DNA from: a virus
Lineage: Duplodnaviria; Heunggongvirae; Uroviricota; Caudoviricetes
Virus record (IMG/VR): IMGVR_UViG_2654587728_000013
Location: 1 to 43,613 of that record
Direction: 5' to 3' (one strand)
DNA length: 43,613 bases
Shown: positions 13,614 to 36,650 of the stretch, piece by piece
Numbering within the stretch: the stretch's first letter is position 1
Layout of the letters: each line of letters starts with the position of its first letter
The notes under the pieces: model-generated
What the model was told of the DNA's origin: nothing
Database searches by the model: none
What the model saw: only the letters and a program-made list of their open reading frames with translations
Position numbers and translations under genes: made by a program

Positions 13614-13620
13614 AATCTCA

Positions 13621-14577: not shown

Positions 14578-16248
14578 ATGGCGGAAACCGAAAAAGAGCG
14601 CCTGCTGAAGCAACTTGCGCAGCTGAAGAATGAGCGCACATCGTTCGAATCGCACTGGCGTGATCTGAGTGACTTCATCAATCCGCGTGGCTCCCGCTTT
14701 CTGACATCTGATGTAAACCGTGATGATCGCCGTAACACCAAGATTGTTGATCCCACTGGCTCAATGGCTCAGCGCATTCTGTCCAGCGGCATGATGTCAG
14801 GCATCACCAGTCCGGCACGACCGTGGTTCAAACTGGCAACGCCTGACCCTGACATGATGGACTATGGCCCGGTGAAAATCTGGCTGGAAGTCGTGCAGCG
14901 CCGCATGAACGAAGTGTTCAACAAATCGAATTTGTATCAGTCACTGCCTGTTATGTACGCAAGTCTGGGTACTTTCGGCACCGGCGCTATGGCTGTTCTG
15001 GAAGATGACCAGGACGTGATCCGCACAATGCCTTTCCCTATTGGCAGTTACTACCTGGCTAACAGTCCGCGCGGTAGCGTAGACACCTGCATTCGCCAGT
15101 TCTCCATGACCGTGCGCCAGATGGTGCAGGAATTCGGTCTGGATAACGTCAGTACATCCGTAAAAGGCATGTGGGAAAATGGCACGTATGAAACGTGGGT
15201 GGAGGTTAACCACTGCATCACGCCTAACGTCAACCGCGACAGCGGTAAGATGGACAGCAAGAACAAGCCTTACCGCTCTGTCTATTTCGAAACTGGCGGT
15301 GACGCTGACAAGCTGCTGCGTGAATCCGGATTTGATGAATTCCCTATTCTGGCGCCGCGCTGGGAAGTGAATGGCGAAGACGTTTACGCCTCATCCTGTC
15401 CTGGAATGCTGGCACTCGGTCAGGTTAAAGCCCTTCAGGTTGAGCAGAAGCGCAAAGCTCAGTTGATCGATAAAGCCACTAACCCGCCGATGGTTGCCCC
15501 GACATCGCTCAAGAATCAGCGGGTTTCCCTGTTGCCTGGCGATGTGACGTACCTCGACGTGTTGACCGGTCAGGATGGTTTCAAACCTGCATACCTGGTA
15601 AACCCGAATACCGCCGACCTGCTGGCTGACATTCAGGACACTAGGCAGACCATCAACAGCGCCTACTTCGTTGACCTCTTCATGATGCTGCAAAACATCA
15701 ACACCCGATCTATGCCGGTGGAAGCGGTGATCGAGATGAAGGAAGAGAAACTGCTGATGCTTGGCCCGGTGCTTGAGCGCCTGAATGACGAAGCGCTTAA
15801 CCCGCTTATCGATCGCGTGTTCTCAATCATGGCCCGCAAGAACATGTTGCCAGAACCTCCTGACGTTCTTCAGGGTATGCCGCTGCGTATCGAGTACATC
15901 TCTGTGATGGCTCAGGCTCAGAAATCTATCGGCCTCACCAGCCTGTCGCAGACAGTTGGATTTATCGGGCAACTGGCGCAGTTCAAACCTGAAGCGCTCG
16001 ACAAGCTTGATGTGGATCAGGCTATCGACGCGTTCTCTGAAATGTCAGGCGTATCGCCAACCGTCATCGTTCCGCAGGAGCAGGTACAGGGTATTCGTGA
16101 AGAGCGAGCTAAACAGGCTCAGGCGGCACAGGCAATGGCTATGGGTCAGGCGGCAGCGCAGGGGGCCAAGACTCTCAGCGAAACGCAGACCAGCGACCCG
16201 AGCGCATTAACTGCTATCGCTAATGCAGCAGGAGCACCGCAGCAATGA
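14578..16248 (+). CDS. portal protein
   Basis: 556 aa directly after terminase module; RBS GGAG; size and position typical of portal. Confidence 0.75.
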   Translation: MAETEKERLLKQLAQLKNERTSFESHWRDLSDFINPRGSRFLTSDVNRDDRRNTKIVDPTGSMAQRILSSGMMSGITSPARPWFKLATPDPDMMDYGPVKIWLEVVQRRMNEVFNKSNLYQSLPVMYASLGTFGTGAMAVLEDDQDVIRTMPFPIGSYYLANSPRGSVDTCIRQFSMTVRQMVQEFGLDNVSTSVKGMWENGTYETWVEVNHCITPNVNRDSGKMDSKNKPYRSVYFETGGDADKLLRESGFDEFPILAPRWEVNGEDVYASSCPGMLALGQVKALQVEQKRKAQLIDKATNPPMVAPTSLKNQRVSLLPGDVTYLDVLTGQDGFKPAYLVNPNTADLLADIQDTRQTINSAYFVDLFMMLQNINTRSMPVEAVIEMKEEKLLMLGPVLERLNDEALNPLIDRVFSIMARKNMLPEPPDVLQGMPLRIEYISVMAQAQKSIGLTSLSQTVGFIGQLAQFKPEALDKLDVDQAIDAFSEMSGVSPTVIVPQEQVQGIREERAKQAQAAQAMAMGQAAAQGAKTLSETQTSDPSALTAIANAAGAPQQ

Positions 16249-19314: not shown

Positions 19315-19695
19315 ATGTCAGGTGAAAAAGCAAGATACCGCGTCCTGCGTTTATCTCACATTCATAACAACCTCTGGCCAGAAGGCTCTGAAGTTGAGTA
19401 TGACGGCGAACCAGGTACGGCGCTGGAGCCACTGAACGATGCGGCGAAATTGGCAAAAGAGATCGCCGAAAAGCGTAAAGGAAGATCGGCTTCTGTAGTT
19501 ATCAATGTTCCATCTCCAGCTGCGGTTCATCAAGTAGTGGAAGAAGTGAAATCTGATGGCACTGGCGCGGTAAGTGAAGACCTTACTCTGCTTCGACAGC
19601 AGTATGAGGATTTACTAGGCAAGAAGCCGGGCAATAAAACGGCTGAAACTCTGGCAAAAGAGATCGCCGAAAAGCGTGCCGAACTGGGCGTCTAA
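19315..19695 (+). CDS. hypothetical protein with internal 27-bp direct repeat
   Basis: 126 aa; LAKEIAEKR occurs twice; followed by terminator. Confidence 0.45.
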   Translation: MSGEKARYRVLRLSHIHNNLWPEGSEVEYDGEPGTALEPLNDAAKLAKEIAEKRKGRSASVVINVPSPAAVHQVVEEVKSDGTGAVSEDLTLLRQQYEDLLGKKPGNKTAETLAKEIAEKRAELGV

Positions 19696-19711
19696 GCCTC
19701 GCTAATCAAAC

Positions 19712-19733
19712 AAGGGGCTTCGGCCCCTTTATT
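19712..19733 (+). terminator. rho-independent terminator/attenuator
   Basis: AAGGGGC-TTCG-GCCCCTT followed by TATT. Confidence 0.6.
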
Positions 19734-19746
19734 GCAGGAGTCCGTT

Positions 19747-20070
19747 ATGGATCTGGTAAACCTCAAAACCGGCACCGACACCTATCAGGATGAGGAGGGT
19801 AAAACCCAGACTCGTGATGATTATCCGTGGGGCCTTTGCATTGAATTGAACAACGAGACGTTAGCCAAGCTAAAGGCAGCACCTCAATCTGCTGGCACTG
19901 AAGTAATGATCACTGCAAAGGCAACTATTCGCTCAACTTCTACCCGCGAAACGGAAGATGGAATGCAGCATAACGCCAGTCTGCAGATCACTGATATGGC
20001 GCTCAGTCCAGTATCCGGTGAGCAACCGAAGTCAGCAGCGCAAACTCTCTACGGTGGGGAGGATGATTAA
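19747..20070 (+). CDS. hypothetical virion protein
   Basis: ORF track start 19732 is TTG; ATG at 19747 with CAGGAG RBS preferred. Confidence 0.45.
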   Translation: MDLVNLKTGTDTYQDEEGKTQTRDDYPWGLCIELNNETLAKLKAAPQSAGTEVMITAKATIRSTSTRETEDGMQHNASLQITDMALSPVSGEQPKSAAQTLYGGEDD

Positions 20071-20675
20071 TGGCTTCTGTTATCGAGATCTGCAACCGCG
20101 CGCTGAGCAATATCGGCAACAGTCGCAGCATTAACAGCCTGAATGAAGCCAGCAAAGAGGCCGGGCAGTGCTCCCTGCATTTTGATGCGTGCCGCGATGC
20201 TGCTCTGGCTGACTTCGACTGGAACTTTGCTACCAAACGCGTGGCGCTGGCTGATACCAATAACCCGCCTCCTGACTGGCAGTACGCTTACCAGTACCCA
20301 TCTGATTGCGTCCGTATAACTGAGATCATGCCGACCGGCATACGCAATCCTACCGCTGCGCAGCGCATTGAATATGTTGTCGGTTCCAATGAGGACCTGA
20401 CAGGTAAGCTCATTTACACCGATCAGCCGAAAGCGTGGTTGAAGTACGTGGCGCGGGTTACTGACGTCAATATGTATGATGCCATTTTTATGGAGGCGCT
20501 TTCCTGGCGTCTGGCCGCTGCCATTAATATGGCGCTTACCGGTAGCGCAGATCTCGGTAACAACGCACTGACGATGTACAACCGTGTGATCCTGAGCGCT
20601 GGCTCACATAGCCAGAATGAATCGCAGGAGCCACAACCTCCGGTAGATGAATTCACAGCAGCGAGGTTGTCATAA
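20070..20675 (+). CDS. tail adaptor-like protein (podovirus gatekeeper-like)
   Basis: 201 aa directly upstream of 825-aa protein; assignment by size and gene order only. Confidence 0.4.
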   Translation: MASVIEICNRALSNIGNSRSINSLNEASKEAGQCSLHFDACRDAALADFDWNFATKRVALADTNNPPPDWQYAYQYPSDCVRITEIMPTGIRNPTAAQRIEYVVGSNEDLTGKLIYTDQPKAWLKYVARVTDVNMYDAIFMEALSWRLAAAINMALTGSADLGNNALTMYNRVILSAGSHSQNESQEPQPPVDEFTAARLS

Positions 20676-23152
20676 TGGCTTTTAGCTGGATTCAACCGAG
20701 CTTTGCCGGTGGTGAAATTGGTCCGTCACTGTATGGCCGTATTGATATGTCAAAGTATCAGGTGGCACTGCGCAAGTGCGATAACTTCATTGTTCGCCAA
20801 TATGGTGGTGTAGAGAACAGACCAGGTACGCGCTTTGTTGGTCCTGCTAAATACCCTGATCGCAAGTGCCGGTTAATCCCATTTCAGTTCTCGACCGTAC
20901 AGACCTATGCTCTGGAGTTCGGGCACAACTATATGCGCGTTATCAAAGATGGCGCTTATGTTCTGACGACCAGCAATGTTATTTATGAGCTGGCGATGCC
21001 GTATGCTGACACTGACCTTTTCCGCATTAAATTCACGCAGAGCGCCGATGTTCTGACGCTGGTGCATCCCGCATACCCTCCGAAAGAACTGCGCCGCTAT
21101 GCGCACGACAACTGGCAGATCGTCGATGTCACCACCAAAAACGGGCCGTTCGAAGATATCAACGTTGACGAGACTGTGAAGGTCTACGCCAGCGCCAGCA
21201 CCGGCACCATTACGTTGACGGCCAGTTCTGCAATCTTCGGTGCTGAACAGGTTGGAAAACTGTTCTATCTCGAGCAGCCCGCGGTTGATTCCGTCCCAGT
21301 ATGGGAAACCAGTAAAACCACAGCAATAAACGACGTTCGTCGTGCAGACAGCAACTACTACCGCGCGAATACTGCAGGTAAGACCGGGACCCTTCGCCCG
21401 TCTCACACTGAAGGTATGTCTTGGGATGGATGGGGCGGTACCGGATCAGATGATACCGGGATACAGTGGGAATACCTGCACAGCGGTTTCGGCATTGCAA
21501 AAATCACAGCAGTGGCTGGCGATGGCCTGACAGCAACTGCCGATGTGATCTCGTTCATTCCATCTCAGGTTGTTGGCTCCGCTAACGCCAGCTATAAGTG
21601 GGCTAAATATGCGTGGAACAGCGTTAACGGCTACCCTAGTACCGTTGTTTACTACCAGCAGCGCCTGTACTTTGCCGCATCTACCGCGTATCCACAAACC
21701 ATCTGGGCAAGCCGCACCGGAGACTATAAAGACTTCGGTAAGAACAACCCTATTCAGGATGACGATCGCATCATCTACACCTACGCCGGGCGACAGGTGA
21801 ATGAGATCCGTCATCTTATTGACGTTGGTAACCTGGTCGCTCTGACATCTGGCGGGGAATATACGATATCCGGGGACCAGAATAAGGTCCTCACGCCATC
21901 GGCGTTCTCGTTCAGTTCGCAGGGCAATAACGGCTCCAGCAATGTTCCGCCGATCGCTGTGGCAAACATCGCACTGTTCATCCAGGAGAAAGGTAGCGTT
22001 GTGCGTGATCTGGCCTACTCCTTCGATGTCGACGGATATCAGGGAACAGACCTGACCATACTGGCAAACCACCTGTTCCAGAAACACAGCATTGTTGACT
22101 GGTCATTCTGCATTGTGCCGTACAGCAGCGCTTTCTGCATTCGTGATGACGGTAAATTACTGGTGCTCACGTATATGCGCGATCAGCAGGTTTTCGCCTG
22201 GGCACCGCAGTCCAGCGCTGGTAAATACGAAAGCACCTGCTCAATCAGTGAAGGCAGCGAGGATGCTGTTTACTTCGTGGTTAACCGTACTATCAATGGG
22301 CAGACCGTACGTTACATCGAACGCCTGTCCAGCCGCCTGTTTACCAGTGATGAAGATGCGTTCTTTGTCGATTGTGGCCTGAGCTACGACGGGCGCAATA
22401 CATCATCACGCACAATGACCATCAGTGGAGGCACAGGTGACTGGAACTATCAGGTTGATTACCCGGTTACAGTAAGCGGTGGTGCGTATTTCGTTAATAC
22501 TGATGTAGGCGCTCAGATTCAGTTCCCATATACCGGCACAGATCCAGACACTAATGAACCGGTCGCTAAAGAGTTGCGCGGCGACATCATTTCAGTGACC
22601 AGTAATACTGCGGTAGTCGTGCGCTTCAATCGTAATGTTCCGGCGGTACTGCGCAATGCGGCCACAACTAACTGGCAGATGGCCCGCCAGACGTTCAGTG
22701 GCCTGTCGCACCTCGAAGGTCAGACAGTAAACATCCTGTCAGATGCCAGCGTTGAGCCTCAGAAGGTTGTCACTGGTGGTTCAGTCACGCTGGAGTCACC
22801 AGGTGCAGTTGTGCATATCGGATTGCCTATCACCGCTGAATTCGAAACACTGGACATCAATATCAATGGGCAGGAAACGCTGCTGGACAAAAAGCAGGTA
22901 ATCCCTACTGTCACGATGGTAGTCAACGCAAGCCGTGGAATCTGGGCAACAACTCCTGGCGGAACCTGGTATGAATATCCGCAGCGTGAATTTGAGTTCT
23001 ACGACGATCCTGTTGATGATGCTACAGGCAAGGTTGAAGTGAAACTCGACAGCAACTGGGATAAAAACGGACGCGTTAAGGTTCGCCAGCTTGACCCACT
23101 CCCGCTTTCTGTTCTTGCTGTATTGCCTCGCCTCACCGTCGGAGGCTTCTGA
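20675..23152 (+). CDS. large tail structural protein (nozzle/tail-tube-B-like)
   Basis: 825 aa; position between adaptor-like gene and internal virion genes. Confidence 0.5.
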   Translation: MAFSWIQPSFAGGEIGPSLYGRIDMSKYQVALRKCDNFIVRQYGGVENRPGTRFVGPAKYPDRKCRLIPFQFSTVQTYALEFGHNYMRVIKDGAYVLTTSNVIYELAMPYADTDLFRIKFTQSADVLTLVHPAYPPKELRRYAHDNWQIVDVTTKNGPFEDINVDETVKVYASASTGTITLTASSAIFGAEQVGKLFYLEQPAVDSVPVWETSKTTAINDVRRADSNYYRANTAGKTGTLRPSHTEGMSWDGWGGTGSDDTGIQWEYLHSGFGIAKITAVAGDGLTATADVISFIPSQVVGSANASYKWAKYAWNSVNGYPSTVVYYQQRLYFAASTAYPQTIWASRTGDYKDFGKNNPIQDDDRIIYTYAGRQVNEIRHLIDVGNLVALTSGGEYTISGDQNKVLTPSAFSFSSQGNNGSSNVPPIAVANIALFIQEKGSVVRDLAYSFDVDGYQGTDLTILANHLFQKHSIVDWSFCIVPYSSAFCIRDDGKLLVLTYMRDQQVFAWAPQSSAGKYESTCSISEGSEDAVYFVVNRTINGQTVRYIERLSSRLFTSDEDAFFVDCGLSYDGRNTSSRTMTISGGTGDWNYQVDYPVTVSGGAYFVNTDVGAQIQFPYTGTDPDTNEPVAKELRGDIISVTSNTAVVVRFNRNVPAVLRNAATTNWQMARQTFSGLSHLEGQTVNILSDASVEPQKVVTGGSVTLESPGAVVHIGLPITAEFETLDININGQETLLDKKQVIPTVTMVVNASRGIWATTPGGTWYEYPQREFEFYDDPVDDATGKVEVKLDSNWDKNGRVKVRQLDPLPLSVLAVLPRLTVGGF

Positions 23153-23616
23153 TGATTAAAGCTCAGATCGTACCAGCTACCACAGAGCACATCGAAGCCA
23201 TCGTTCCACATGTTCGCCAGGCTGATATCGATGAATTTCTGGCAACCAATGGATGGAGTCCGCGTCGCGTACTGGAAACCGGTCTGCGCACGTCAACATT
23301 CTGCTGCGCCGGATTGATTAATGGTGAAGTGGTGACTGTCTTTGGCGTAGCGCCAGCATCGATGATCGGCGGCAGCGGTATTCCGTGGCTGGTTGGCACT
23401 GACGCGCTGGAAAAATACCAGCGTACTTTCCTTCGCCGCTGCGGAAAAGTGGTCAATGCAATGCTGACCGTTTATCCGTATCTTGAAAATTATGTTGATG
23501 CGCGTAACCACACTGCACGCATCTGGCTTCACTGGCTGGGATTCACCATCGATGAGCCTCAGCCATACGGCATTAATAACCTACCGTTTCACCGTTTCCA
23601 CATGGAGAGAAAATAA
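23152..23616 (+). CDS. hypothetical virion protein
   Basis: 154 aa; coupled start. Confidence 0.4.
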   Translation: MIKAQIVPATTEHIEAIVPHVRQADIDEFLATNGWSPRRVLETGLRTSTFCCAGLINGEVVTVFGVAPASMIGGSGIPWLVGTDALEKYQRTFLRRCGKVVNAMLTVYPYLENYVDARNHTARIWLHWLGFTIDEPQPYGINNLPFHRFHMERK

Positions 23617-24158
23617 TGTGCAGCCCGGCTATCGCTCTTGCTGGCGCCAGTGTCGCTTTAAGTGGCGTTTCAGCATACAACCAGTACCAGCAAGGTAAGT
23701 ATTCATCTGCTGTTGCAGAGCAGAATGCAGAAGTGGCCACGGCACAGGCACAGGATTCTATCAACCGTGGCAACGCTCAGGCTGATGAGGTTCGTCGCCG
23801 TAATCGTCAGGCCGCTGGCACCCAGGCGGCAACCATGGGCGCTACAGGTGCAGATCTATCCACTGGTGGAGCGCTGGATATCTTCGGCGATACAGCGCAG
23901 TTTGGCGCGCTGGATGCGCTGACCACGGTCAATAACGCTCAGCGTGAAGCATATGGCTTTCAGGTTCAGGCTGAAAACTACAAAGCTCAGGCCAACTCAG
24001 CACGCAAGCAGGGGAATATGGGAGCATTTACCACACTGCTGACTGCTCCGCTTAATGCCTATGGTGCTTATAGGATTGGTGGTGGTGAATGGAACCCGTT
24101 CACACAAAGTACCCCAGCACCGATCAGCGCTGCCATCGGCACACCAACCGGTCGATAA
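23616..24158 (+). CDS. internal virion protein (putative)
   Basis: 180 aa; N-terminal hydrophobic segment, Ala/Gln/Gly-rich. Confidence 0.45.
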   Translation: MCSPAIALAGASVALSGVSAYNQYQQGKYSSAVAEQNAEVATAQAQDSINRGNAQADEVRRRNRQAAGTQAATMGATGADLSTGGALDIFGDTAQFGALDALTTVNNAQREAYGFQVQAENYKAQANSARKQGNMGAFTTLLTAPLNAYGAYRIGGGEWNPFTQSTPAPISAAIGTPTGR

Positions 24159-24170
24159 GGAGACATAGAA

Positions 24171-26792
24171 ATGCCAACAGTACCAACAGTCACCGGTCGA
24201 CAGGTAGAAAGCAGAGGGTTTCAGTCTCCTGGGTTTCAGGCATTCGATCAGCCAAATATCGGTGATGCTATCGTCGACGCTGGCAGCAAAGCCATCAACG
24301 TATTTGGAGAGGCCAAGCAACGGGCAAATGTGGCACTTACCCAAGAGGCAACTCTTCAACTGAATGCGGTTGGCAACGATCTGCTAAATAACCCTGATTC
24401 AGGATTCATGAATCTGCAAGGGAAGAACGCGATCGGCAAGGGGCAGGAGTACGTGCAGCAGTTTGATTCTCAGGCGCAGAGCATTGCAGCAAGCCTGCCG
24501 GATGAGCAGGCGCGAAATGCGTTTCTTCAGCAGGCACAGCAGCAGAGAATCCAGTTCAAGACGACCGCTGTTCGCCATGAAGTTGGGCAGGTGCGTCAGT
24601 ACGAAGCAGGTATGCAGGAGGGAACGTTACGTTCGCTGGCACAGCAGGCGATTTCTCCTGGTCTGTTTGTTCCTGCATTGATGAATGCTCGTAATTCTAT
24701 TATCGCTTATGGGAAAGCCCACGGACAGAGCGATGAGGAAATAGAGTCTAATTTCGTGCAGTGGCGTGAGCAGGCCGCCAACCGCGCCAGCGAAGCATGG
24801 TATACACCAACCTATCAGCAAATCATGGGGCCGGAAGGTAAGATCGAAGTTACCGACACTCCGAGCGAATCGCAGCTTTTTTCCGCGATGATCTGGCAGG
24901 AATCCGGAGGTAATCAGTATGGCAAAGACGGTTTACCACTGGTATCTCCGAAAGGTGCAGTAGGGGTGGCGCAGGTGATGGAGGATACGGGGCCGGAAGC
25001 AGCACGACTGGCTGGCGTACCGTGGGATCGTGATAAGTGGCTGAACGATACGCGCTACAATGCGAAGCTTGGTCAAGCCTACTTCGGCGCGCAGATGAAG
25101 AAGTATGACAATAATCCTGTACTGGCGGTGGCGGCGTATAACGCTGGGCCAGGTGCGGTTGATGGATGGATAAAGCAGTTTGGCGACCCGCGTACTGGTG
25201 CGGTGAGCAATGAGCAATTCGCTGCGGCAATCCCTTATGATGAAACTCGCAACTATGTCGCGAAAGTAACCGGCAGCGCTCCGGCGATACCAGGAACTGC
25301 TACGATGGAAAACCTCATCAATCAGCCTTTCTGGGATGCGATGAGTCCGCAGAACAAATCAGCGATGATGAGCAAAGTGGCAGGCATGTACGATATGCAA
25401 GCCGCAGCTGGTCGCGTGTCATTGCAAAGCCGCATGCAGGATGACCTTGCTAAATTAGAGTCAGGACAGAAAGTTAACCCGATCTCGGAACGTGAGTGGC
25501 TGGCGGTCATGCCGTTGCAGGCAAGCCCGGCGGAGCGCATTCAGATGCGCGAGTCATTCCAGCAATATCAGCAGGCGATGACGCTGCAACCGGTATATCA
25601 ATCCATTGTTCAGGGTTCTGCGCAGCAGGGTATCGCTGCGGTGCAGTCTATGGTGCCGCAGGAAGATGACCCTGACTTTAAATTTAAGCAGAGCTTGTAC
25701 GCAACTGCGCAGGCCAAACTGAATCAGGTAATTAAAGCGCGCGAGTCCGACCCGGGTACGTGGCTACAAGCCAACTCGCCGGTGGTGAAAAACGCCTTTG
25801 AGCAATATCAGAACAACCAGGCATCAGGTGAATATCTGGTTTCCCGTCTGCAAGCAGAGAAAGACCGCCTTGGTATCAATAGTAAGAAGGTACTTCCTGA
25901 CGCCATGGTTAACAACCTCATTTCTCAGATCGATAACAATAAAGAATCAAGCGTAACCGCCATTCAGTCGGTGGCGCAGTCGTTCGGAAAATACTCCGAT
26001 CAGGTTATGCAGCAGGTGCAGAAAAGCGCATATCCAGCGCTTCAAGTCATCATGGCGACCAATAATCCTCGGGCCGCCAACGCGCTCTGGCAAAACCGCA
26101 GTGTTAAAACTTCTGACCTGCGCGGCAGCTTTGAGAAGACAGACGCCGACAGCGCTGATTCATCTTGGAATGACCAGGCAAAAGATTTTGCCGGGACGAT
26201 GGTTGTACAGCCTGGCGGGTCTGCCGTGTGGAACAACTTCAACGAGCAGGGTAAACGCCTGACCTACACCTATATGCAGCGCGGCATGTCGCCTGGCGAT
26301 GCAGCAAAACAGGCATATCAGGACGTTCTCGGTGAGCAGTATCAGACCAATGGCACCTGGCGTATGCCTAACAACGCCGGGCATGATATTCGTGACGTTA
26401 ATGACGGCGCTAACGTGTACCTGAAGAATCTGTCAGCAGATCAGATCATGCCGCTAATCGGTGACGCCCGTCTGCCGGATGAGGTTAACCGAGAGCAAAG
26501 TATTTCCCGCATTCGTGATAACGCACAGTGGGTAACCAACAGCGACGAAACAGGGCTTACGCTGATGATGAATGGTCTGTTGATCAACAATGCGCAGGGG
26601 CAGCCGATTACAGTTTCGTTTGCTGACCTCGCGAAACTTGGCGCTGGCAACCGTACAACTTGGAACAGCCTGACCAAATTCGTGCAGACGCCGGTTAAGT
26701 ACACTCCGGGCCAGTCGAAGAATTACACGGTAGAAAGTCAGCGTGAAAATCTGATCAACATTATCCAGAACGGCCAGCAGACGGGACGATAA
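24171..26792 (+). CDS. internal virion protein with lytic transglycosylase (SLT) domain
   Basis: 873 aa; WQESGGNQYGKDG...GVAQVMEDTGPE...AAYNAGPGAVDGW matches SLT signature. Confidence 0.75.
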   Translation: MPTVPTVTGRQVESRGFQSPGFQAFDQPNIGDAIVDAGSKAINVFGEAKQRANVALTQEATLQLNAVGNDLLNNPDSGFMNLQGKNAIGKGQEYVQQFDSQAQSIAASLPDEQARNAFLQQAQQQRIQFKTTAVRHEVGQVRQYEAGMQEGTLRSLAQQAISPGLFVPALMNARNSIIAYGKAHGQSDEEIESNFVQWREQAANRASEAWYTPTYQQIMGPEGKIEVTDTPSESQLFSAMIWQESGGNQYGKDGLPLVSPKGAVGVAQVMEDTGPEAARLAGVPWDRDKWLNDTRYNAKLGQAYFGAQMKKYDNNPVLAVAAYNAGPGAVDGWIKQFGDPRTGAVSNEQFAAAIPYDETRNYVAKVTGSAPAIPGTATMENLINQPFWDAMSPQNKSAMMSKVAGMYDMQAAAGRVSLQSRMQDDLAKLESGQKVNPISEREWLAVMPLQASPAERIQMRESFQQYQQAMTLQPVYQSIVQGSAQQGIAAVQSMVPQEDDPDFKFKQSLYATAQAKLNQVIKARESDPGTWLQANSPVVKNAFEQYQNNQASGEYLVSRLQAEKDRLGINSKKVLPDAMVNNLISQIDNNKESSVTAIQSVAQSFGKYSDQVMQQVQKSAYPALQVIMATNNPRAANALWQNRSVKTSDLRGSFEKTDADSADSSWNDQAKDFAGTMVVQPGGSAVWNNFNEQGKRLTYTYMQRGMSPGDAAKQAYQDVLGEQYQTNGTWRMPNNAGHDIRDVNDGANVYLKNLSADQIMPLIGDARLPDEVNREQSISRIRDNAQWVTNSDETGLTLMMNGLLINNAQGQPITVSFADLAKLGAGNRTTWNSLTKFVQTPVKYTPGQSKNYTVESQRENLINIIQNGQQTGR

Positions 26793-26793
26793 T

Positions 26794-28500
26794 ATGCCGA
26801 TTTATACAGATGACCCAGGGCAGGGAATAAACCAGCCGCTGTCGAATGCCCCATCAGGGCTTGGTGAATCGCTGCTTTCCTCCCTGAAAGAGGGATTCAA
26901 AGAGGGGCCTGTTGTGTCAGGTTATCGGTTTTCTCAAGCCGACCAACTGGCAAATGACCCAAATTCGACCATCGTCAGTAAATCTGACGCGGAAACACGC
27001 CTTAAAGAGTACGGCGTTAAAAGTATCAATGTGCCTGACGGCGGTGTTACACAAACATTCCTCGACCATGTGATCAGCGAGCGCAGAGAAACTCTGGCGA
27101 AGCAGCAGATCGCCATGTCTGCCCCGTCTGGATGGGTTGCCACTCCGCTTAACTTTGCCGCAAACCTTGCAGGATCAATGGCTGATCCCGGTAACGTGGC
27201 TTTGGCGCTGGTCCCGTTCGGTGGAGAAGCAAAGGCGGCAACTATGCTTGGGCGCTTCGGTGAGCGTCTTTCCACCGGTGCTCGGCTTGGCGCTGCTCAG
27301 GCCATTGCCACCGTACCTCTGACGGCACAGGCAGCAGCGGCAGAAGGAGATGACTTCACATATGGCAACGCGCTGGAGAGCACCTTCTTTAACACCATCG
27401 CTGGCGGGTTGATGCACGCTGGCGGCGGGCTGATATCGGATGTGGTACGCTCCCGCAGGGCTGGTACTGTTGAAAATCCTGCTGCCTCGCAAGACGTTCA
27501 GCCTGTCGCTGATGCGCAGCCAACACCGGTGTTTACGCCTGACAATATACCGGCAGGCGTAAATATTCCTGAGTCCGGCACCAACGCCGATCTGTCAGCG
27601 GCAATCGCGCGGGATGCGGAAGCGTATGCCTACAGCCGCGCCTATGATGATGTTGTGCCGGAATATATGGCAAGGCAGCAGGAGCTACAGACAGGGAGCA
27701 TTGACAACGTTGCGGATCTGCGAACTGAGTTGGTGACCAACAACAGGCAAAGTGAGGCACTTGACGCAACTCTGGCCCAGCGCACGACCGATTACCAGGC
27801 GCAACGCATGAAATTCAAAGCAGCACGAGCCAGGGCGCAGCGAGATATTGAGGTTGAGAAAGACGCCATCACCGCGCGTAACCAGGAAATTACGCAACAG
27901 ATTGAACGTAATGCTGCAGCAGAGCAGGCAAAAGGCAGAGAGGCGCAACTGTCCCGCAAAGAGATACCTGACGACTTGGCGCCGTTGATAGCCCAGCGTG
28001 CGCAACAGATTCGCGAAAGCATGCAGATGTCGCCTGTGGCTGGCGCAGTGCGCACTGCGTCGGCAGCGGTTCGTGAGGCTGACTGGAGCGTTAACCAGCA
28101 GGCGTATCGAGGCGCACTGGCGCACATGATGGAAGGGCGCTCGCCTGATATTGAGCCATTCTATGATCTGCACAAACCAGCTCTACGCGAGCGTGCTATC
28201 CAGCGCATACAAAATCCGGTGCGGCAGGCTGATGAAGGTTCCCGCGCCGTCAGTGAAAGTGCGGATCGTGTGTGGCAGGATACGCAGAAGGTTGACCATG
28301 AAATAACAGCGGCTACCGCTGATCTGGAAAATGAATTTAATATCAGTGATGCGCTGCTGAACGACATTGCCACTGACAATCCTGACCTGGCTGCGTCGAT
28401 GCGGGAGAATATTGCAGCGATCCGTGCAGAGGCCAGTGACGACTCTATCGGAAAAGCGTACCGCGCTTTCGCCGCCTGTCTGATTAACCGGGGGCTGTAA
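26794..28500 (+). CDS. internal virion / ejection protein (putative)
   Basis: 568 aa; in injection-protein block. Confidence 0.5.
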   Translation: MPIYTDDPGQGINQPLSNAPSGLGESLLSSLKEGFKEGPVVSGYRFSQADQLANDPNSTIVSKSDAETRLKEYGVKSINVPDGGVTQTFLDHVISERRETLAKQQIAMSAPSGWVATPLNFAANLAGSMADPGNVALALVPFGGEAKAATMLGRFGERLSTGARLGAAQAIATVPLTAQAAAAEGDDFTYGNALESTFFNTIAGGLMHAGGGLISDVVRSRRAGTVENPAASQDVQPVADAQPTPVFTPDNIPAGVNIPESGTNADLSAAIARDAEAYAYSRAYDDVVPEYMARQQELQTGSIDNVADLRTELVTNNRQSEALDATLAQRTTDYQAQRMKFKAARARAQRDIEVEKDAITARNQEITQQIERNAAAEQAKGREAQLSRKEIPDDLAPLIAQRAQQIRESMQMSPVAGAVRTASAAVREADWSVNQQAYRGALAHMMEGRSPDIEPFYDLHKPALRERAIQRIQNPVRQADEGSRAVSESADRVWQDTQKVDHEITAATADLENEFNISDALLNDIATDNPDLAASMRENIAAIRAEASDDSIGKAYRAFAACLINRGL

Positions 28501-31046
28501 TGGCTAACGAATTTCTTACGCAATGCGAAATGACCGTCAATGCAGCTGCCGGGCGCAAGCTGTCTGATGACGAAATGGAATCTTTGGTGCGTGACATGAA
28601 CGACACCACAAACCGGATACTGGCTGGTAATGAAGCACTGACGCTGGAAGAAGCAGCGATGCGCGCCGCGCAGGAGCTTGGTAATCGCGAGCAACTGGCT
28701 AAAGTCATTGAGGCACGGAATAAGGCCATTAATACCCGTATTGCAGCTCAGCGCCTTGGCGAGCTTCGCCGGACTTGGAAAGACCGTCCGGACATCGGTC
28801 TGGAGGCTATTCTTGTCGGACGTAATGACGCGCGCACTGGTTCCCGCCGCTCGGTATCCTCTGAGGTTGCCCAACTGCGCGGTAAGTATCATGCTGGTAT
28901 CAACTATGATTTCGACCAGGCAGGACTGGTTAAATTTATTGCCAGTGGCAGCAATGACCGCGAGATAGCCGACGCCATGTGGCGCATTGGCCGCGGACAG
29001 AAAACGGACGGTATGACGCCGCAATCAGTCAGTGCCGCTAAGATCATCATGAAGTGGCAGGAAACTGCGCGCGTGGATGAAAACCGTGCTGGTGCCTGGA
29101 TTGGTAAGATGCCTGGCTACATCGTCCGGCAGTCGCATGACATACTGAAAATCCGTGCCGCCGGGTATGAATCCTGGCGCAATACCATTCTGCCGCGGCT
29201 GGATGATGCCACCTTTGACGGGATCACAGACCGAGAAGGGTTCCTGCGTGGTGTCTACGACGGCCTTGCCTCCGGTGTGCACCTTACCTCTGAAAAACCA
29301 GACTGGATGAATGGCTTTAAGGGATCGGCGAATGCGGCCAAACGAGCCAGCCAGGAGCGGGTGTTGCACTTCAAAGACGGTGTTAACTGGCACGAATACA
29401 ACGAGCAATTCGGAACTGGCAGCCTGCGTGAGGCAGTATTCGGCGGACTGAACAGCGCGGCGCGCACTACGGGCATGATGCGCGTGCTTGGTACCAACCC
29501 GCAGAACATGTTCAAGTACCTGACAGACACCATCGCAAAAGACGTGAGCAAGCAGAGCAACCCTTCGGCGCTGGCTGATTTCATGACCAAGGTGCGCCGC
29601 CTGAATCGCACGGTTATGCCACAGGTTGATGGATCGCTGAATATCCCCGGCAGTGTTGGCTGGGCTAATGCCTCAGCCAACGTGCGCGGCTGGCTGCGTA
29701 TGAGTCAGCTTGGAGGAGCGGTCATTTCATCTTTTAACGACGTGCCAATCTCGGCGACAGAAATGCGGTATCAGGGCCAGAACTTCATGCAGGCGCTGAC
29801 CGGCGCGATGAAGGGGCGCTTTTCCCGCTACACCAGTGATGAGCAGAAGGAGATCCTTTCATCTATCGGCGTTTACTCCGACGCGATGACGCAGGAAATC
29901 ATCCGTCGCATGTCTGGCGACGACAGCATGAGCGGCAAGATGGGGCGTGCGCAGCAGCTATTCTTCAAATACAACCTTATGAACTTCTGGACAGAATCCG
30001 GGCGTAACAGCAACGCCATGATGATAACAAACTGGCTGGCGAAGAACGCCGATCAGCAATTTTCTGCACTGCCGGAGGACCTGCGCCGCGTTCTGGACCT
30101 GCACGGCATAGGTGACGCTGAATGGAATATCTACCGCAGCATGGACATGGCAGACAGCGAAGGCCGCAAATTCATGACGACCAGCGGAATTCGTGGCGTT
30201 CCGGATGAGGTGATAGCCTCATATGTTGAAGGAAAAGGCATGAAGGTCACCGAGCGATCTATTGCCGATGCGAGAGACACGCTGGAAAGCCAACTTCGTG
30301 GGTATATTCTTGACCGACTAAACATCGCTATGTCAGAGCCGGGAGATCGTACGCAGGCGTTTATGAAGATGGGCACTGTACCAGGAACAGTAGCTGGGGA
30401 GGCAATACGTTTCGCTGGTCAGTACAAATCGTTCACTGCGAGTTTCATGCAGAACGTGCTTGGACGTGAGGTATTCGGGCGCGGTTATACTCCCGCTGGC
30501 CTGGGTGAATCAAAAACAGGATCGCTGACGAATGCGCTGCTGCGTAACGGAAAAGGTGCATTCTTGGGGGCGGCAAACCTGTTCGTCTGGGCAACCATGT
30601 TTGGCTATATCTCTATGCAGTCGAAACTATTGCTTAAGGGGCAGACGCCGCGTCCGGCAGATGCCAAGACATTCCTCGCAGCCGCATCTCAGGGCGGCGG
30701 CCTAGGCATCTTGGGCGACTTCATGTTTGGCGAAGTCAATCGCATGGGTGCTGGTCCAGTGACATCATTGATGGGGCCAGCCGCGTCGAACGCTGATAGC
30801 ATTATCACGCTGTTCCAGCAGACAACGCGCGGCGATGCAGACCTGGGTGACTGGTATCGCACCGCGCTGGACAATACGCCTTTCCTTAACGTGTTCTGGC
30901 TGCGCACAGCAATGAATGGTTTAATATTGAACCGTATACAGGATGCTCTTGACCCTGGATCACTGGAGCGCTATCAGCGCCGTGTTGAACGGGAGCAGGG
31001 TAACGACTTTCTGATCCCACCATCGCAGTTCATGCTAGGGAAGTAA
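28500..31046 (+). CDS. large internal virion / ejection protein (putative)
   Basis: 848 aa; last large gene of the core block. Confidence 0.5.
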   Translation: MANEFLTQCEMTVNAAAGRKLSDDEMESLVRDMNDTTNRILAGNEALTLEEAAMRAAQELGNREQLAKVIEARNKAINTRIAAQRLGELRRTWKDRPDIGLEAILVGRNDARTGSRRSVSSEVAQLRGKYHAGINYDFDQAGLVKFIASGSNDREIADAMWRIGRGQKTDGMTPQSVSAAKIIMKWQETARVDENRAGAWIGKMPGYIVRQSHDILKIRAAGYESWRNTILPRLDDATFDGITDREGFLRGVYDGLASGVHLTSEKPDWMNGFKGSANAAKRASQERVLHFKDGVNWHEYNEQFGTGSLREAVFGGLNSAARTTGMMRVLGTNPQNMFKYLTDTIAKDVSKQSNPSALADFMTKVRRLNRTVMPQVDGSLNIPGSVGWANASANVRGWLRMSQLGGAVISSFNDVPISATEMRYQGQNFMQALTGAMKGRFSRYTSDEQKEILSSIGVYSDAMTQEIIRRMSGDDSMSGKMGRAQQLFFKYNLMNFWTESGRNSNAMMITNWLAKNADQQFSALPEDLRRVLDLHGIGDAEWNIYRSMDMADSEGRKFMTTSGIRGVPDEVIASYVEGKGMKVTERSIADARDTLESQLRGYILDRLNIAMSEPGDRTQAFMKMGTVPGTVAGEAIRFAGQYKSFTASFMQNVLGREVFGRGYTPAGLGESKTGSLTNALLRNGKGAFLGAANLFVWATMFGYISMQSKLLLKGQTPRPADAKTFLAAASQGGGLGILGDFMFGEVNRMGAGPVTSLMGPAASNADSIITLFQQTTRGDADLGDWYRTALDNTPFLNVFWLRTAMNGLILNRIQDALDPGSLERYQRRVEREQGNDFLIPPSQFMLGK

Positions 31047-31047: not shown

Positions 31048-31419
31048 ATGAACAGAATTATATTAATGACTCTTCTTATTTTTTTTGTTGGAAAAGCTTC
31101 TGCTGATACTACATCACCTTTAATGATTCAGCCTAAAAATGGAGAAACATTGGAGGATTCTAAAAAGCATACAATGGAATACTTTGGATGCATAAAAGGG
31201 CAGGCTGTAAAGTATGCCAAGACAGGAGAAAGTGTTGATTCCATATCAAAAGCTTCGGTTGTGTCATGCGAGTCATATATACCAATGATCGCCGAGTCGA
31301 ATATATATTATTTAAACTCTTCGCAAGATGGTAAGCGGCAATTTACAGAAAGGCTAAAATCTGATGGTGAGAGATTAGCCACAAAATTTGCCATGGATGA
31401 GAAGATTAAAAATAAATAG
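31048..31419 (+). CDS. small secreted protein (AT-rich moron)
   Basis: 123 aa; signal peptide MNRIILMTLLIFFVGKASA; visibly low GC (estimated ~35%, not computed). Confidence 0.55.
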   Translation: MNRIILMTLLIFFVGKASADTTSPLMIQPKNGETLEDSKKHTMEYFGCIKGQAVKYAKTGESVDSISKASVVSCESYIPMIAESNIYYLNSSQDGKRQFTERLKSDGERLATKFAMDEKIKNK

Positions 31420-31748: not shown

Positions 31749-31771
31749 ACAAAAAAGCCCGCGTCGCGGGC
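31749..31771 (-). terminator. rho-independent terminator (minus strand; possibly bidirectional)
   Basis: GCCCGCG-T-CGCGGGC hairpin with A-run on plus / T-run on minus, directly after stop of 31772..32236. Confidence 0.55.
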
Positions 31772-32236
31772 TTACTCTTCTTCATCGCTACCAAAGAGCG
31801 GGTTATCGTTGTAGTCAGAGAGAAGAAACGGTATGTGCTCCCTCGAATACCCAACCACAACTATTTCATCTCCGTCTTTCGCATAGTGAATGCATTCATT
31901 TGAATGCTTCCCACCAGGGTTGAATTTTAAGTCAACAGTATGATTTCTGAAGGTGTTAGGATACCACGTGGGACCACAATGATAGTGCCAGTAATTTTCC
32001 TGCTCATAATTGTCTGAACCGGGAATTTTATCATAGTTGTCGTCAACCCAAGATGGCTTGTTTTTACCTACAAGCGTTCTGCCATTGGCAACATCTTCCA
32101 TAAAATTTTGGATGGTTTCCAACTCCAGGTCCGTGAGATGTGGTCCATCTACTGCGAAAGGTTCGTTACTGGCACCGGTTATAAAGCCAAATGCAACCCT
32201 AGGCTTAAACTTCAAGTTACACCCCTGACAGGTCAA
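31772..32236 (-). CDS. hypothetical protein with acidic C-terminal tail
   Basis: 154 aa; only start-like codon at 5' end is TTG immediately after in-frame TAA of upstream small ORF; start uncertain. Confidence 0.4.
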   Translation of the reverse strand: MTCQGCNLKFKPRVAFGFITGASNEPFAVDGPHLTDLELETIQNFMEDVANGRTLVGKNKPSWVDDNYDKIPGSDNYEQENYWHYHCGPTWYPNTFRNHTVDLKFNPGGKHSNECIHYAKDGDEIVVVGYSREHIPFLLSDYNDNPLFGSDEEE

Positions 32237-33962: not shown

Positions 33963-36650
33963 ATGACGGTTTCAACCGAAGTTGACCACAATGACTACAC
34001 AGGTAACGGGGTCACGACATCATTCCCATATACCTTCCGAATTTTTCATAAGTCTGATCTGGTGGTGCGGGTTGTTGACCTGAGCGAAAACATCACTGAA
34101 TTAACACTGGACACTGACTACACGGTGACAGGTGCTGGCGGATATACTGGCGGGAATGTTGTTTTATCGTCGCCTCTTGCCAATGGTTATCAGATTTCGA
34201 TATCCAGAGAGTTACCGGTTACCCAGGAGACTGATCTCAGAAATCAGGGTAAGTTTTTCGCAGAAGTGCATGAGGATGCTTTTGATAAGTTGACCATGCT
34301 GATACAGCAGGCAATTAGTTGGCTGCGCCTTTCTTTACGTAAGCCGTCTTTTATTGCAAATTATTATGATGCCCTGGGTAACTACATACGAAATCTTCGT
34401 GACCCGTCACGACCACAGGATGCAGCTACAAAAAATTACGTTGACGGAGTTGCTGAAGGTAACACTTCTTATGCAGATTCTCTATTTAAAAGAACCTTAA
34501 GAGTTCCTGAGGATTATGTTGACCAGATACCATCAAATGCTGATAGATCAAATAAAATACTTGCTTTTGATTCTGGCGGTAAACCTATTGCTGTTTTACC
34601 TGAATCTGGTTCTGCTTCAGATGTTTTAATTGAGCTGGCAAATAACGGTGATAAAAAAATTGGTAGCTCATATGGAGGCACAGTTTATAGCGACTACCAA
34701 CGATCAATTTTTGTCAAAAAGGCAGAATTTTCTTCAGGTTTAACCATTTCATCAAAGAATGATGCTTGTCTTTATGCTGATGGGCTATGGTACGTATGGA
34801 CTGGAGCATTACCTCACACCATCTCGTCTGGTGAATTTCCGGATGTCGAAACAACTAAATGGGCATGCGTTGGACTTCTGAATGGTTACCGAATCAATGA
34901 AGTAAAAAATTTCATTGAGAAACCCGGCATCACAAATGATTCACCAGCAATTAAACTTGCTATTTACTCGTTAGTGCGTCTTGGCTACGGAGAGTTGATT
35001 GTTACAGCTAACTCAAAAGTAAACATAATCACAGAGGTTGCAATACCATTTGCCATTGATGGAATCCCTGTATCCATAGGAATAAGAGGTGAAGGTGTAA
35101 TAAACTCTCTGGGGAATGTCCCAGAGATAAGGTTTGGACTTAACTCAAGGGGGATTGTGTTTGGTAATGTTTGCTATTCATTAGACCGCCTGGTGTTATC
35201 ACAATATGTAGGATCAGAAAATACAGATGTGATAAGCAAAACATCCAACACCATTACTCTGGTATCAAATCCATTTCAGGCTAATGGTGGAAATATAATT
35301 ACATGGCCTTTGACTGACAACAACACCGCAGGTGTTCCAGTAAGTAACTTCTGTCAATTCAGCACTAACTCTGGGGCTTTCTTTGCTACAGGACTTGTTA
35401 ATAACTCTGATGGGAGTTGTACATTAACCGGAGTTACTGGGTGCAATGGAACCCCTTCGTCAGAGATATCGAACGTCACAAAAGTTGTCAGATTTACATC
35501 AAGAGCGCATCAGTTACCAGATGACACCTATCCGCGCACAGCAGCATGCATCAGTTTAGATGTCATAGAGAACCCTACTATAAGCAACTTATGGGTTCTG
35601 CAAACATATCGAACTTTCTCATTCAAAGATGGAAATGGAGGCGGAGAAGGTTCAGGTCTGGGTCATTACGGATTGTGGAATGACATCATAGTCGATGGGA
35701 CCAAAGAATTTGTAGGCGGTACAGATTTGAGTGGCGGCAGCATTCAAGGAATTGAAGGCGGACAGTTTGTTAATATCCATCTGTTTGGTACTAAGTATGG
35801 TTTTCGTGGCCGAAGAATGAAGTCATGTATGTTCTCAAACTGCACACACTATGCTTTTACAGGCGGTAAAATATTTGACATTCTGGAGTTTGATGGTTTT
35901 TCATGGGGAGGCGGTTCTATTGGTTGGAACTCAGGTTCTGGGTACATCAGCAATGTTATGGATTGTGTAAATGGTGATAACATTACATTCACCGGTGTTA
36001 AGTTTGGTAGGCACCACACTACAGAATCAGGACCGGCTTTTAAATGCTCATCTCGTTTTACTAATTTTTCATTTACCGGAAACAGCCATGAATCAGTGAG
36101 CGAAGGTGGATTCACTGATATTGGTTTCTTTGATGTAAATGAATTTTCTAGATCAAGTATTGGCGAAAACGCAATTGGGTTTAATGGTAATGGGCAACCA
36201 ACACTAACGATGTCTACTTCTGCACCTGATATTGCAAGATTCGCAGGTACTAGATTTAATCAGCCTGTTCTCACAAATGCCCCTGCTGGCATTTATGATA
36301 ACGAACATACTTCAGGTAAAGGAACATTCTATTCTACATCAGACTATCGTGACTCAGGTAAGATTTTAATAATACCTGATATTAACTCGGCCTCACCATG
36401 GCCTGATGATTCTAGAAATATAATAAAATTTGGCGGTACTTTATCTCCTGGTAAAACTCTAATGCTTCCAGAGCTAACTATATTGAATGGGACGCTTCTT
36501 AGGAGCATGGTTTTACTAGATCTTTCATCAGTAAATTTCAATGGTCAGACTATCGGTATTTATAATGGACCTACACTTATAACTACATTGTCATCACAAG
36601 GAATATATGAGTTTCTTAGTGTAGGATCTACTTATTACAGGATAAAATAA
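33963..36650 (+). CDS. tailspike / receptor-binding protein (mosaic)
   Basis: 895 aa from ATG with GGAGAAAA RBS (ORF track start 33921); N-terminal region of normal GC, C-terminal ~2.2 kb AT-rich and Gly/Asn/Ser/Thr-rich. Confidence 0.7.
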   Translation: MTVSTEVDHNDYTGNGVTTSFPYTFRIFHKSDLVVRVVDLSENITELTLDTDYTVTGAGGYTGGNVVLSSPLANGYQISISRELPVTQETDLRNQGKFFAEVHEDAFDKLTMLIQQAISWLRLSLRKPSFIANYYDALGNYIRNLRDPSRPQDAATKNYVDGVAEGNTSYADSLFKRTLRVPEDYVDQIPSNADRSNKILAFDSGGKPIAVLPESGSASDVLIELANNGDKKIGSSYGGTVYSDYQRSIFVKKAEFSSGLTISSKNDACLYADGLWYVWTGALPHTISSGEFPDVETTKWACVGLLNGYRINEVKNFIEKPGITNDSPAIKLAIYSLVRLGYGELIVTANSKVNIITEVAIPFAIDGIPVSIGIRGEGVINSLGNVPEIRFGLNSRGIVFGNVCYSLDRLVLSQYVGSENTDVISKTSNTITLVSNPFQANGGNIITWPLTDNNTAGVPVSNFCQFSTNSGAFFATGLVNNSDGSCTLTGVTGCNGTPSSEISNVTKVVRFTSRAHQLPDDTYPRTAACISLDVIENPTISNLWVLQTYRTFSFKDGNGGGEGSGLGHYGLWNDIIVDGTKEFVGGTDLSGGSIQGIEGGQFVNIHLFGTKYGFRGRRMKSCMFSNCTHYAFTGGKIFDILEFDGFSWGGGSIGWNSGSGYISNVMDCVNGDNITFTGVKFGRHHTTESGPAFKCSSRFTNFSFTGNSHESVSEGGFTDIGFFDVNEFSRSSIGENAIGFNGNGQPTLTMSTSAPDIARFAGTRFNQPVLTNAPAGIYDNEHTSGKGTFYSTSDYRDSGKILIIPDINSASPWPDDSRNIIKFGGTLSPGKTLMLPELTILNGTLLRSMVLLDLSSVNFNGQTIGIYNGPTLITTLSSQGIYEFLSVGSTYYRIK

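Follow-up and report, generated by a model that had tools for sequence, protein, structure and literature searches.

A mosaic gene block in an Escherichia coli prophage is very probably the tail and DNA-ejection module of an epsilon15-like temperate podovirus

By what kind of tail would a phage deliver its genome if no tape measure, sheath or tail tube can be recognised among its virion genes? The question is raised by the 43,613-nucleotide Caudoviricetes record IMGVR_UViG_2654587728_000013 (below, the window, meaning this whole stretch of DNA as analysed), in which the genes at positions 20070-31046 follow the capsid genes and had been put forward, in the original prediction, as a podovirus-type virion module. 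With a probability of roughly 90%, we consider this block to encode the tail and the DNA-ejection machinery of an intact temperate podovirus of the epsilon15 kind, which resides as a prophage next to guaA in Escherichia coli. The kind of module is well known and this is an ordinary, mosaic member of it; its novel detail is the homology, held with moderate confidence, of a 568-amino-acid (aa) protein to the centre of T7 gp16.

Seven plus-strand open reading frames (ORFs), of 201, 825, 154, 180, 873, 568 and 848 aa, lie within the block. Together with the portal gene upstream, which is given as context, they read as follows.

14578..16248, plus strand: portal protein of T7 type, upstream of the block (PF12236 Head-tail_con, phrog_332, epsilon15 gp4).
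20070..20675, plus strand: tail adaptor or gatekeeper, 201 aa, epsilon15 gp11 and T7 gp11 equivalent, 'tail tubular protein A' (PHROGs, PDB, epsilon15).
20675..23152, plus strand: tail nozzle, 825 aa, epsilon15 gp12 and T7 gp12 equivalent, 'tail tubular protein B' (PHROG, PDB, epsilon15).
23152..23616, plus strand: small internal virion protein, 154 aa, epsilon15 gp13, at the position of internal virion protein (IVP) A (phrog_308, epsilon15).
23616..24158, plus strand: internal virion or ejection protein of the T7 gp14 family, 180 aa, epsilon15 gp14, IVP-B (PF24072, phrog_418).
24171..26792, plus strand: large ejection protein with a muralytic domain, 873 aa, epsilon15 gp15 position, chimeric (phrog_1044, phrog_992).
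24864..25187, plus strand: SLT (family 1 lytic transglycosylase) domain, aa 232-339 of the 873-aa protein (PF01464).
26794..28500, plus strand: ejection protein, 568 aa, epsilon15 gp16 position (phrog_3003, phrog_342, AlphaFold2).
28500..31046, plus strand: large ejection protein, 848 aa, epsilon15 gp17 family, IVP-D homolog (phrog_684).

Because stop and start codons overlap at four junctions and just 13 of the 10,977 bases are non-coding (99.9% coding), 20070-31046 is one tightly coupled operon segment. Its GC content stays at 0.52-0.57 and drops to 0.43 directly past 31046, and the right boundary is therefore the end of the conserved structural block. Order, orientation and packing are those of epsilon15 gp11-gp17, with which the block is collinear downstream of the capsid staple gene gp10, each gene mapping by position and most by homology as well; beyond the block, the window's collinearity with the annotated epsilon15 genome reaches from the small terminase subunit as far as the lysis cassette. 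None of the seven genes is truncated by comparison with its homologs, gp11-gp14 being identical in length to those of epsilon15, and since the proteins of these four are 91-99.5% identical to the products of the same-position epsilon15 genes, the ORFs are evidently real genes rather than chance ORFs. Orthology with epsilon15 does not extend to all seven proteins: gp15 matches in part, gp16 has no BLAST match and gp17 is 21% identical. The adaptor-sized and 825-aa proteins that had been noted after the capsid genes lie where they were placed and prove, by homology, to be adaptor and nozzle; the 'five large proteins' said to follow them come down to three (873, 568 and 848 aa), the other two being small (154 and 180 aa), and the lytic transglycosylase domain ascribed to one of them is borne out in the 873-aa protein, with its catalytic motifs.

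The proteins at the portal vertex are the closest to known structures. The portal matches PF12236 Head-tail_con (E=8e-189) and phrog_332, and is 98.9% identical to epsilon15 gp4. The 201-aa adaptor, 99.5% identical to epsilon15 gp11, matches phrog_394 'tail protein' (4e-84) and phrog_9239 'tail tubular protein' (1e-17), as well as the 'Connector Protein' of phage Carin-1 (PDB 8ck1_E, 3e-23) and the adaptor of LME-1 (orf17, 9efk_T, 4e-6). The nozzle, 98.8% identical to epsilon15 gp12 and matching phrog_376 (E=0), aligns across aa 2-824 with the 'Tail Nozzle' 8ck1_A (1e-208) and matches the LME-1 nozzle (orf18, 9efk_M, 2e-15). A chain of entry 8ck1 also appears in the crystal entries for Dpo31, the Carin-1 tailspike (Carin-1 is a podovirus of Cobetia marina), and 9efk is the portal-tail complex of Legionella phage LME-1, whose tail its authors describe as closely T7-like and most similar to that of Carin-1. 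The marks of a T7-type tail are thereby present: a PF12236 portal, together with an adaptor and a nozzle homologous to solved Carin-1 and LME-1 chains. An earlier comparison between hidden Markov models (HMM-HMM; Hardies et al., PMC4819975) connects epsilon15 gp11 and gp12 with T7 'tubular tail A/B', and 'tail tubular protein A/B' is a historical name for the T7 adaptor and nozzle, not for the tube of a long tail.

Two small internal virion proteins come next. The 154-aa protein is 90.9% identical to epsilon15 gp13, which has been assigned IVP-A (PMC4819975) and for which the epsilon15 record notes a GNAT-like HHpred match; it belongs to phrog_308 'internal virion protein' (5e-59). The 180-aa protein, 92.8% identical to epsilon15 gp14, matches Pfam PF24072 T7_gp14 over aa 1-158 (34.1 bits against a cut-off of 27, E=3e-8) and phrog_418 (3e-67), of the 'internal virion protein' class in PHROGs; a profile search of the PDB with it gave coiled-coil or chance matches only.

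The 873-aa protein is 78% identical over its full length to its homolog in the E. coli PF9285 prophage, while its N-terminal 232 aa are 51% identical to epsilon15 gp15 and the remainder cannot be aligned with it. Its SLT domain (PF01464, E=3e-16, 59.4 bits against a cut-off of 21.3, aa 232-339) matches Slt70-type PDB entries at 1e-12 and carries the motifs WQES, with catalytic E244-S245, GVAQVM and AAYNAG, which parallel TES, GMMQF and AYNQG of T7 gp16; the domain is predicted to cleave peptidoglycan. Epsilon15 gp15 has no Pfam SLT match. Where the window protein has the canonical domain, gp15 (epsilon15 12141-14669) has a different sequence with an RNNNPGN... motif, and its GenBank note mentions an SltB-like HHpred match. 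The muralytic domain thus appears to have been swapped along with the distal block, as a non-orthologous replacement at the same position; among phages, such domains shift between gp15-like and gp16-like proteins (PMC8954989).

For the 568-aa protein the closest family, phrog_3003 (E=2e-242), is of 'unknown function', and it is a partial match that links it to T7: aa 26-408 align with positions 224-586 of the 1235-position profile phrog_342 (E=6.5e-6, 25 bits), the T7 gp16 family, against which T7 gp16 itself scores 1355 bits. Other members of the 568-aa family independently match the same phrog_342 region, up to 2.7e-13. When the family was aligned with T7 gp16 alone by hhalign the score was weak (E=0.04), the motif DPGNVALALVPFGGEA of the family being placed on DPLSYVPMVGVTGKG, residues 338-352 of gp16, so that a DPxN..VP..G motif is common to both; against T7 gp15, hhalign gave no match. 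A full HMMER scan at E<=1e-3 places 1,301 representative clusters (50% identity) in the family, most members having 540-660 aa and a conserved N-terminal region with invariant D131, P132, N134 and P141. The family profile matches epsilon15 gp16 in its C-terminal half only (1e-11, 9-sequence set), and epsilon15 gp15 and gp16 had been proposed as IVP-C candidates by position alone (Hardies et al., PMC4819975). The AlphaFold2 model is all-helical, with a long central coiled coil (pLDDT 80), and in BFVD it recovers, besides family members, a 1401-aa 'Lysozyme' of Marinomonas phage CPP1m, weakly (5e-4, low TM-scores). With moderate confidence, we take the 568-aa protein to be the counterpart of the central part of T7 gp16, its N-terminal half being the homologous portion.

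Relatives of more than 1000 aa (P0194, P0216, P0246) have the 568-type N-terminal domain fused to ART-PolyVal (an ADP-ribosyltransferase), LPD3 and PBECR1 nuclease domains, which are typical of polyvalent proteins. Polyvalent proteins are thought to enter the recipient cell together with the DNA, and their fusion to this N-terminus would fit an ejected carrier module.

The 848-aa protein matches phrog_684 (8e-263), the PHROG that it has in common with epsilon15 gp17, to which it is 21% identical (phmmer, 1e-22); it is 89.7% identical to its E. coli PF9285 prophage homolog, and the annotation 'internal virion protein' is given to homologs in Pelagibacter podophages. It does not match phrog_342, and its link to T7 gp16 runs through epsilon15 gp17 and the literature, in which Hardies et al. 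place gp17 in the T7 gp16 (IVP-D) family (PMC4819975). Between its family and T7 gp16, hhalign aligned a 'Q[FY]KSFT' stretch at E=0.098, a value at which no relationship is claimed.

Is the module part of a functional, temperate phage? In contigs with the same left end, a 417-aa integrase, adjoining the MT-A70 gene, and then guaA lie just beyond window position 1; the element is therefore a prophage at the epsilon15-type guaA site, of which the window lacks only the integrase, and thus temperate. Exact copies of the 873-aa and tailspike proteins are on record in E. coli draft assemblies. At the opposite end, 40121-43613, a 396-aa tyrosine integrase follows the lysis cassette; it is 52% identical to epsilon15 Int and, in other genomes, stands directly beside guaA and is followed by AlpA, AAA_25, NikA-like and TrbL genes. 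This segment is a second integrative island in tandem at the guaA site, as these arrangements indicate, and its integrase is not that of the prophage. That the window is a free circular phage genome, with its integrase past the lysis genes, was considered and rejected, the 396-aa integrase being that of the second island and the prophage's own lying left of the window.

The position of the prophage's integrase outside the window, and the second integrative element abutting the right end, could also suit a decaying remnant, or a block co-opted for a tailocin-like or defence role, that no longer yields infectious podovirus particles. Among the rivals this one survives best and is still very improbable, with the integrase found beside the MT-A70 gene in the contigs just described, with the terminase, portal, protease, capsid, tailspike and lysis genes present and intact, and with the seven genes full-length relative to their homologs (873, 568 and 848 aa for the three large proteins, against 873, 565 and 849 aa for their counterparts in E. 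coli PF9285, NZ_CP038791).

For an intact epsilon15-like podovirus, a mechanism can be proposed whose assembly, ejection and enzymatic steps we infer from the homologous systems of epsilon15 and T7. In epsilon15, itself temperate and a podovirus, the portal, core and hub have been seen by cryo-electron microscopy, and the core exits the capsid on infection and forms a tube across the periplasm (PMC12391199; PMC4819975); in the T7 ejectosome model, gp14 occupies the outer membrane, gp15 forms the tunnel, and gp16 provides the transglycosylase and inner-membrane parts (PMC8954989). In the window phage, the 201-aa adaptor, as a dodecamer, and the 825-aa nozzle, as a hexamer, would fix onto the T7-type portal and make up a short tail hub bearing six tailspikes, and the five proteins encoded after the nozzle would be packaged in the capsid as a core stacked on the portal. 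Upon adsorption, these five would be ejected through the nozzle; the gp14-family protein would move to the outer membrane, the 873-aa protein would cut the peptidoglycan with its SLT domain, and the helical 873-, 568- and 848-aa proteins would refold into a channel across the periplasm and inner membrane, which would take the place of the tail tube and tape measure of long-tailed phages. No segment of strong hydrophobicity emerged from a simple hydropathy scan of the seven module proteins, and membrane insertion is therefore not arguable from sequence.

Such a pre-formed core would be missing if the module were of the P22 type, in which ejection proteins are dispersed in the head and the tail is closed by a needle. 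Epsilon15 does cluster with P22 in gp14 and gp16 trees, and its gp15- and gp16-like proteins are comparatively 'small' (PMC8954989); the same work, however, reports a T7-like core stack in epsilon15, and the PF12236 portal and the matches of adaptor and nozzle to Carin-1 and LME-1, whose tails resemble T7's, leave a P22-type module slightly less probable even than a remnant.

The T7-type assignment agrees with the outcome of the search for long-tail genes. Pfam and PHROGs scans of about 45 ORFs across the window matched tail and internal virion PHROGs, and no tape-measure, tail-tube, sheath, tail-chaperone or baseplate family was found among these ORFs. The only 'tape measure' label, phrog_37649 (E=4e-24), aligns aa 228-367 of the 873-aa protein, that is its SLT domain, with profile positions 1208-1347 of 2006. 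Every ORF longer than 400 aa is accounted for, as the large terminase, portal, nozzle, three ejection proteins or tailspike, the exception being one antisense ORF that overlaps the large terminase gene. With no long-tail family found and every large ORF accounted for, a temperate podovirus is the interpretation supported. The least credible of the alternatives, in which the 873-aa SLT protein is the tape measure of a siphovirus or myovirus whose tube and sheath genes have diverged too far to be recognised, can point to phrog_37649 and to the match of epsilon15 gp15 to phrog_2276, likewise labelled tape measure, and is rejected because the phrog_37649 match is confined to the SLT domain, the neighbouring genes encode an adaptor and a nozzle related to solved podovirus structures as well as a T7-type portal, the late operon leaves no unassigned ORF as a tube, sheath, chaperone or baseplate candidate, and the close relative epsilon15 is a podovirus by cryo-electron microscopy. 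The original prediction, that no tape-measure, sheath or tail-tube gene can be made out and that this fits a temperate podovirus with an ejected internal core, accordingly holds up in both parts, the latter through collinearity with epsilon15, the T7-type portal, the solved podovirus tail relatives, the T7_gp14 match and the guaA prophage.

Several points weigh against the ejection-module interpretation. Compared pair by pair, the module proteins show no similarity to T7 gp11-gp16 above noise (by phmmer, all of them against T7 gp8-gp17 gave noise only, apart from a weak SLT-SLT match), and the T7 link is drawn through intermediates, through profiles and through HMM-HMM comparisons in the literature. 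When the PDB was searched with profiles built from the 568- and 848-aa family alignments, coiled-coil or chance matches were all that came back; the model of the 568-aa protein had no Foldseek match in the PDB, and that of the 848-aa protein (pLDDT 47) was unusable for a fold search, in line with a caution in the literature about the reliability of AlphaFold on ejection proteins.

Where does the module come from? Along it, the ancestry changes within the gp15 gene.

24250..24870, no strand: mosaic junction, epsilon15-like to the left and a second lineage to the right (DNA identity, Megablast ends).

At the DNA level, identity to epsilon15 stays at 90-100% as far as about 24250, drops to 56-70% between there and about 24650, and to 42-50% at about 24650-24900; within the gp15 protein, the first 40 residues are 82% identical and background is reached past about residue 200. 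A Megablast search of the block against 50,697 phage records matched only temperate podoviruses of the Uetakevirus type (epsilon15, SPN1S, PAT1, phiV10 and others), at up to 94.6% identity; the matches cover just the first 4.2-4.5 kb or so, ending at query positions 4187-4494 (window 24256-24563), and the best coverage of the module in any deposited phage is 41%. Of 5,426 complete E. coli genomes, 61 carry the lineage right of the joint, with a nucleotide identity of about 77%; the genes are arranged alike there and in Klebsiella, Leclercia, Pseudescherichia and Serratia, and the lineage is present in Citrobacter and others too. No deposited Enterobacterales phage with this trio of large proteins was found.

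In prophages of the E. coli PF9285 type the whole module is collinear and the 873-, 568- and 848-aa proteins are 78, 74 and 90% identical; these prophages also share the major capsid protein (90%), the same secreted 123-aa gene after gp17 and integration in the guaA/yfgI region, but differ in the adaptor, nozzle, gp13 and gp14, which are just 85, 88, 62 and 72% identical (epsilon15: 91-99.5%). With the proximal genes nearer to epsilon15 and the distal ones nearer to PF9285, the window therefore combines an epsilon15-type proximal with a PF9285-lineage distal block. The module reads as a recombinant. Its adaptor, nozzle, gp13, gp14 and first 200 or so residues of gp15 are of epsilon15 type; from the muralytic domain onwards, the remainder of gp15, together with gp16 and gp17, derives from a second lineage, one that enterobacterial prophages carry and that has only distant representatives among Stenotrophomonas and Pseudomonas podophages. 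Gene identities, homologies and this mosaic structure are demonstrated by the comparisons.

The head genes (14578-20070) alternate in ancestry as well. The portal and protease are 99 and 86% identical to those of epsilon15, whereas the major capsid, cement and staple proteins are 44, 36 and 44% identical to epsilon15 and 90, 81 and 73% to the E. coli prophage type; the capsid shell genes thus follow the second lineage, and the portal, adaptor, nozzle, gp13 and gp14 follow epsilon15. Over window positions 1-39700, epsilon15 gives 43% coverage at 89.5% identity, a product of about 39%. The genus criterion of the International Committee on Taxonomy of Viruses lies at about 70% genome-wide nucleotide identity; the window is below a genus-level relationship to epsilon15 itself, the single genome in this genome-wide comparison.

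Taken together in their collinear order, the SLT domain, the 568-aa protein and the 848-aa protein may, with lower confidence, parallel T7 gp16. A more far-reaching and tentative proposal, to which we give somewhat less than even odds, is that the functions of gp16 are distributed here, in collinear order, among three successive genes (the 873-aa protein having the SLT domain, the 568-aa protein the central 'DPxN..VP..G' domain and the 848-aa protein the C-terminal part), that the N-terminus of the 568-aa protein is an 'ejection ticket', and that the gp15 joint is a unit boundary. The N-terminus of the 568-aa family would then be a general ticket, fused in other phages to ADP-ribosyltransferase and nuclease domains of polyvalent proteins for their delivery into the host, and the joint would separate a portal-proximal unit (nozzle, gp13, gp14 and the N-terminus of gp15) from a freely exchangeable distal ejectosome unit.

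Two further features lie beyond the block.

31755..31773, no strand: GC-rich hairpin, candidate bidirectional terminator after two small accessory genes (consensus match only).
33963..36650, plus strand: tailspike, 895 aa, epsilon15 gp20 position, outside the block (Tail_spike_N, phrog_1640).

A tailspike had been expected directly after the ejection genes and within their range; it is present, but lies 2.9 kb further on, beyond a low-GC accessory cluster that separates it from the block. The protein matches Pfam Tail_spike_N and phrog_1640; its N-terminal 260 aa or so are 76% identical to epsilon15 gp20, and the first 171 aa match the virion-anchoring D1 of Carin-1 Dpo31 (8ck1, 8e-26); since the C-terminal part is unlike that of epsilon15, receptor specificity has probably been swapped. 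The gene likely starts at ATG 33963 rather than at GTG 33921 of the ORF list, because homology to epsilon15 gp20, PHROG alignments and public gene calls begin there.

Directly past the last ejection gene, 31048-31724 (plus strand, GC 0.43) holds two small genes. One product, of 123 aa, begins with a signal peptide and matches no family; the other, of 98 aa, falls in phrog_3075 and has three hydrophobic segments. Both genes look to be morons co-transcribed with the late operon, which the hairpin (8-bp stem, 6 GC pairs, scored on both strands) likely closes as a bidirectional terminator, by consensus match only. In the minus-strand cluster that separates the ejection genes from the tailspike, 32500-33198 encodes an antirepressor-like Bro-N domain protein, 60% identical to the product of the same-place BRO-N gene of E. 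coli PF9285. Just past the tailspike, at a position occupied in epsilon15 by its O-antigen conversion genes, is a minus-strand 321-aa ORF (36733-37698, GC 0.36-0.39) with no Pfam or PHROG match. Farther upstream, a plus-strand 181-aa ORF (16541-17086; phrog_17779 of unknown function, no Pfam match) stands between a Bbp19-like gene and the prohead protease, a position at which epsilon15 and the E. coli PF9285 prophage have no gene, and two antisense ORFs (12813-13613, minus strand, GC 0.47) of 119 aa (no family) and 143 aa (phrog_18493, weak HNH match) stand between the large terminase and the portal operon, where an unrelated gene occurs in epsilon15, and DUF2829 with a tRNA-Arg in E. coli PF9285. 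A tRNA scan found none, and promoter-like sites were not more frequent than in shuffled sequence.

Current understanding is not challenged by this module, whose value is mainly in annotation. As a complete epsilon15-type podovirus prophage, the window is a sound frame for the accessory insertions elsewhere in it; the large 568-aa family (about 1,300 clusters at 50% identity), mostly named 'hypothetical' or after its coiled coils in databases, gains a working annotation; and, more modestly, the gp15 joint and the link of the 568-aa protein to the T7 gp16 centre suggest which parts of podovirus ejectosomes exchange as units.

Among known systems, epsilon15 is the obvious reference. It has the same gene order, gp11-gp14 that are 99.5, 98.8, 90.9 and 92.8% identical, a portal that is 99% identical, guaA integration, a lysis cassette at 84-100% and a tailspike N-terminal anchor at 76%; it differs in gp15, which matches over the first 232 aa only (51%) and lacks a Pfam SLT domain, in gp16, which shows no BLAST similarity to the 568-aa protein and only a profile match in the C-terminal half, in gp17 (21%), and in capsid shell genes of another type (major capsid protein 44% identical). 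The nearest deposited phages with a trio of the window's type, in the same order, are the Stenotrophomonas phages BUCT708/709 and the Ab31-like Pseudomonas podophages, whose copies are far more distant than those of enterobacterial prophages (36, 39 and 49% identity for BUCT708; 31 and 46% for the last two proteins of Ab31). Carin-1 (8ck1) and LME-1 (9efk) provide sequence homologs of the adaptor and nozzle, and differ from the window phage in hosts and receptor-binding parts; the matched entries hold no ejection-protein chains that match window proteins, and a 2024 ejectosome paper counts Carin-1 among the whole-particle reconstructions that show the ejectosome, not at high resolution. T7, finally, differs in having its SLT domain at the N-terminus of gp16 rather than internally in the protein at the gp15 position, and two large proteins (747 and 1318 aa) rather than three (873, 568 and 848 aa); unlike it, the window phage is temperate, has no phage RNA polymerase and bears tailspikes, not fibres. 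Its proteins show no pairwise sequence similarity to those of T7, yet the two phages share one order, from adaptor and nozzle through a small internal protein, a gp14-family protein and large helical ejection proteins that include an SLT domain to the receptor-binding protein, and the 568-aa protein gives a partial match to the profile of the T7 gp16 family, phrog_342.

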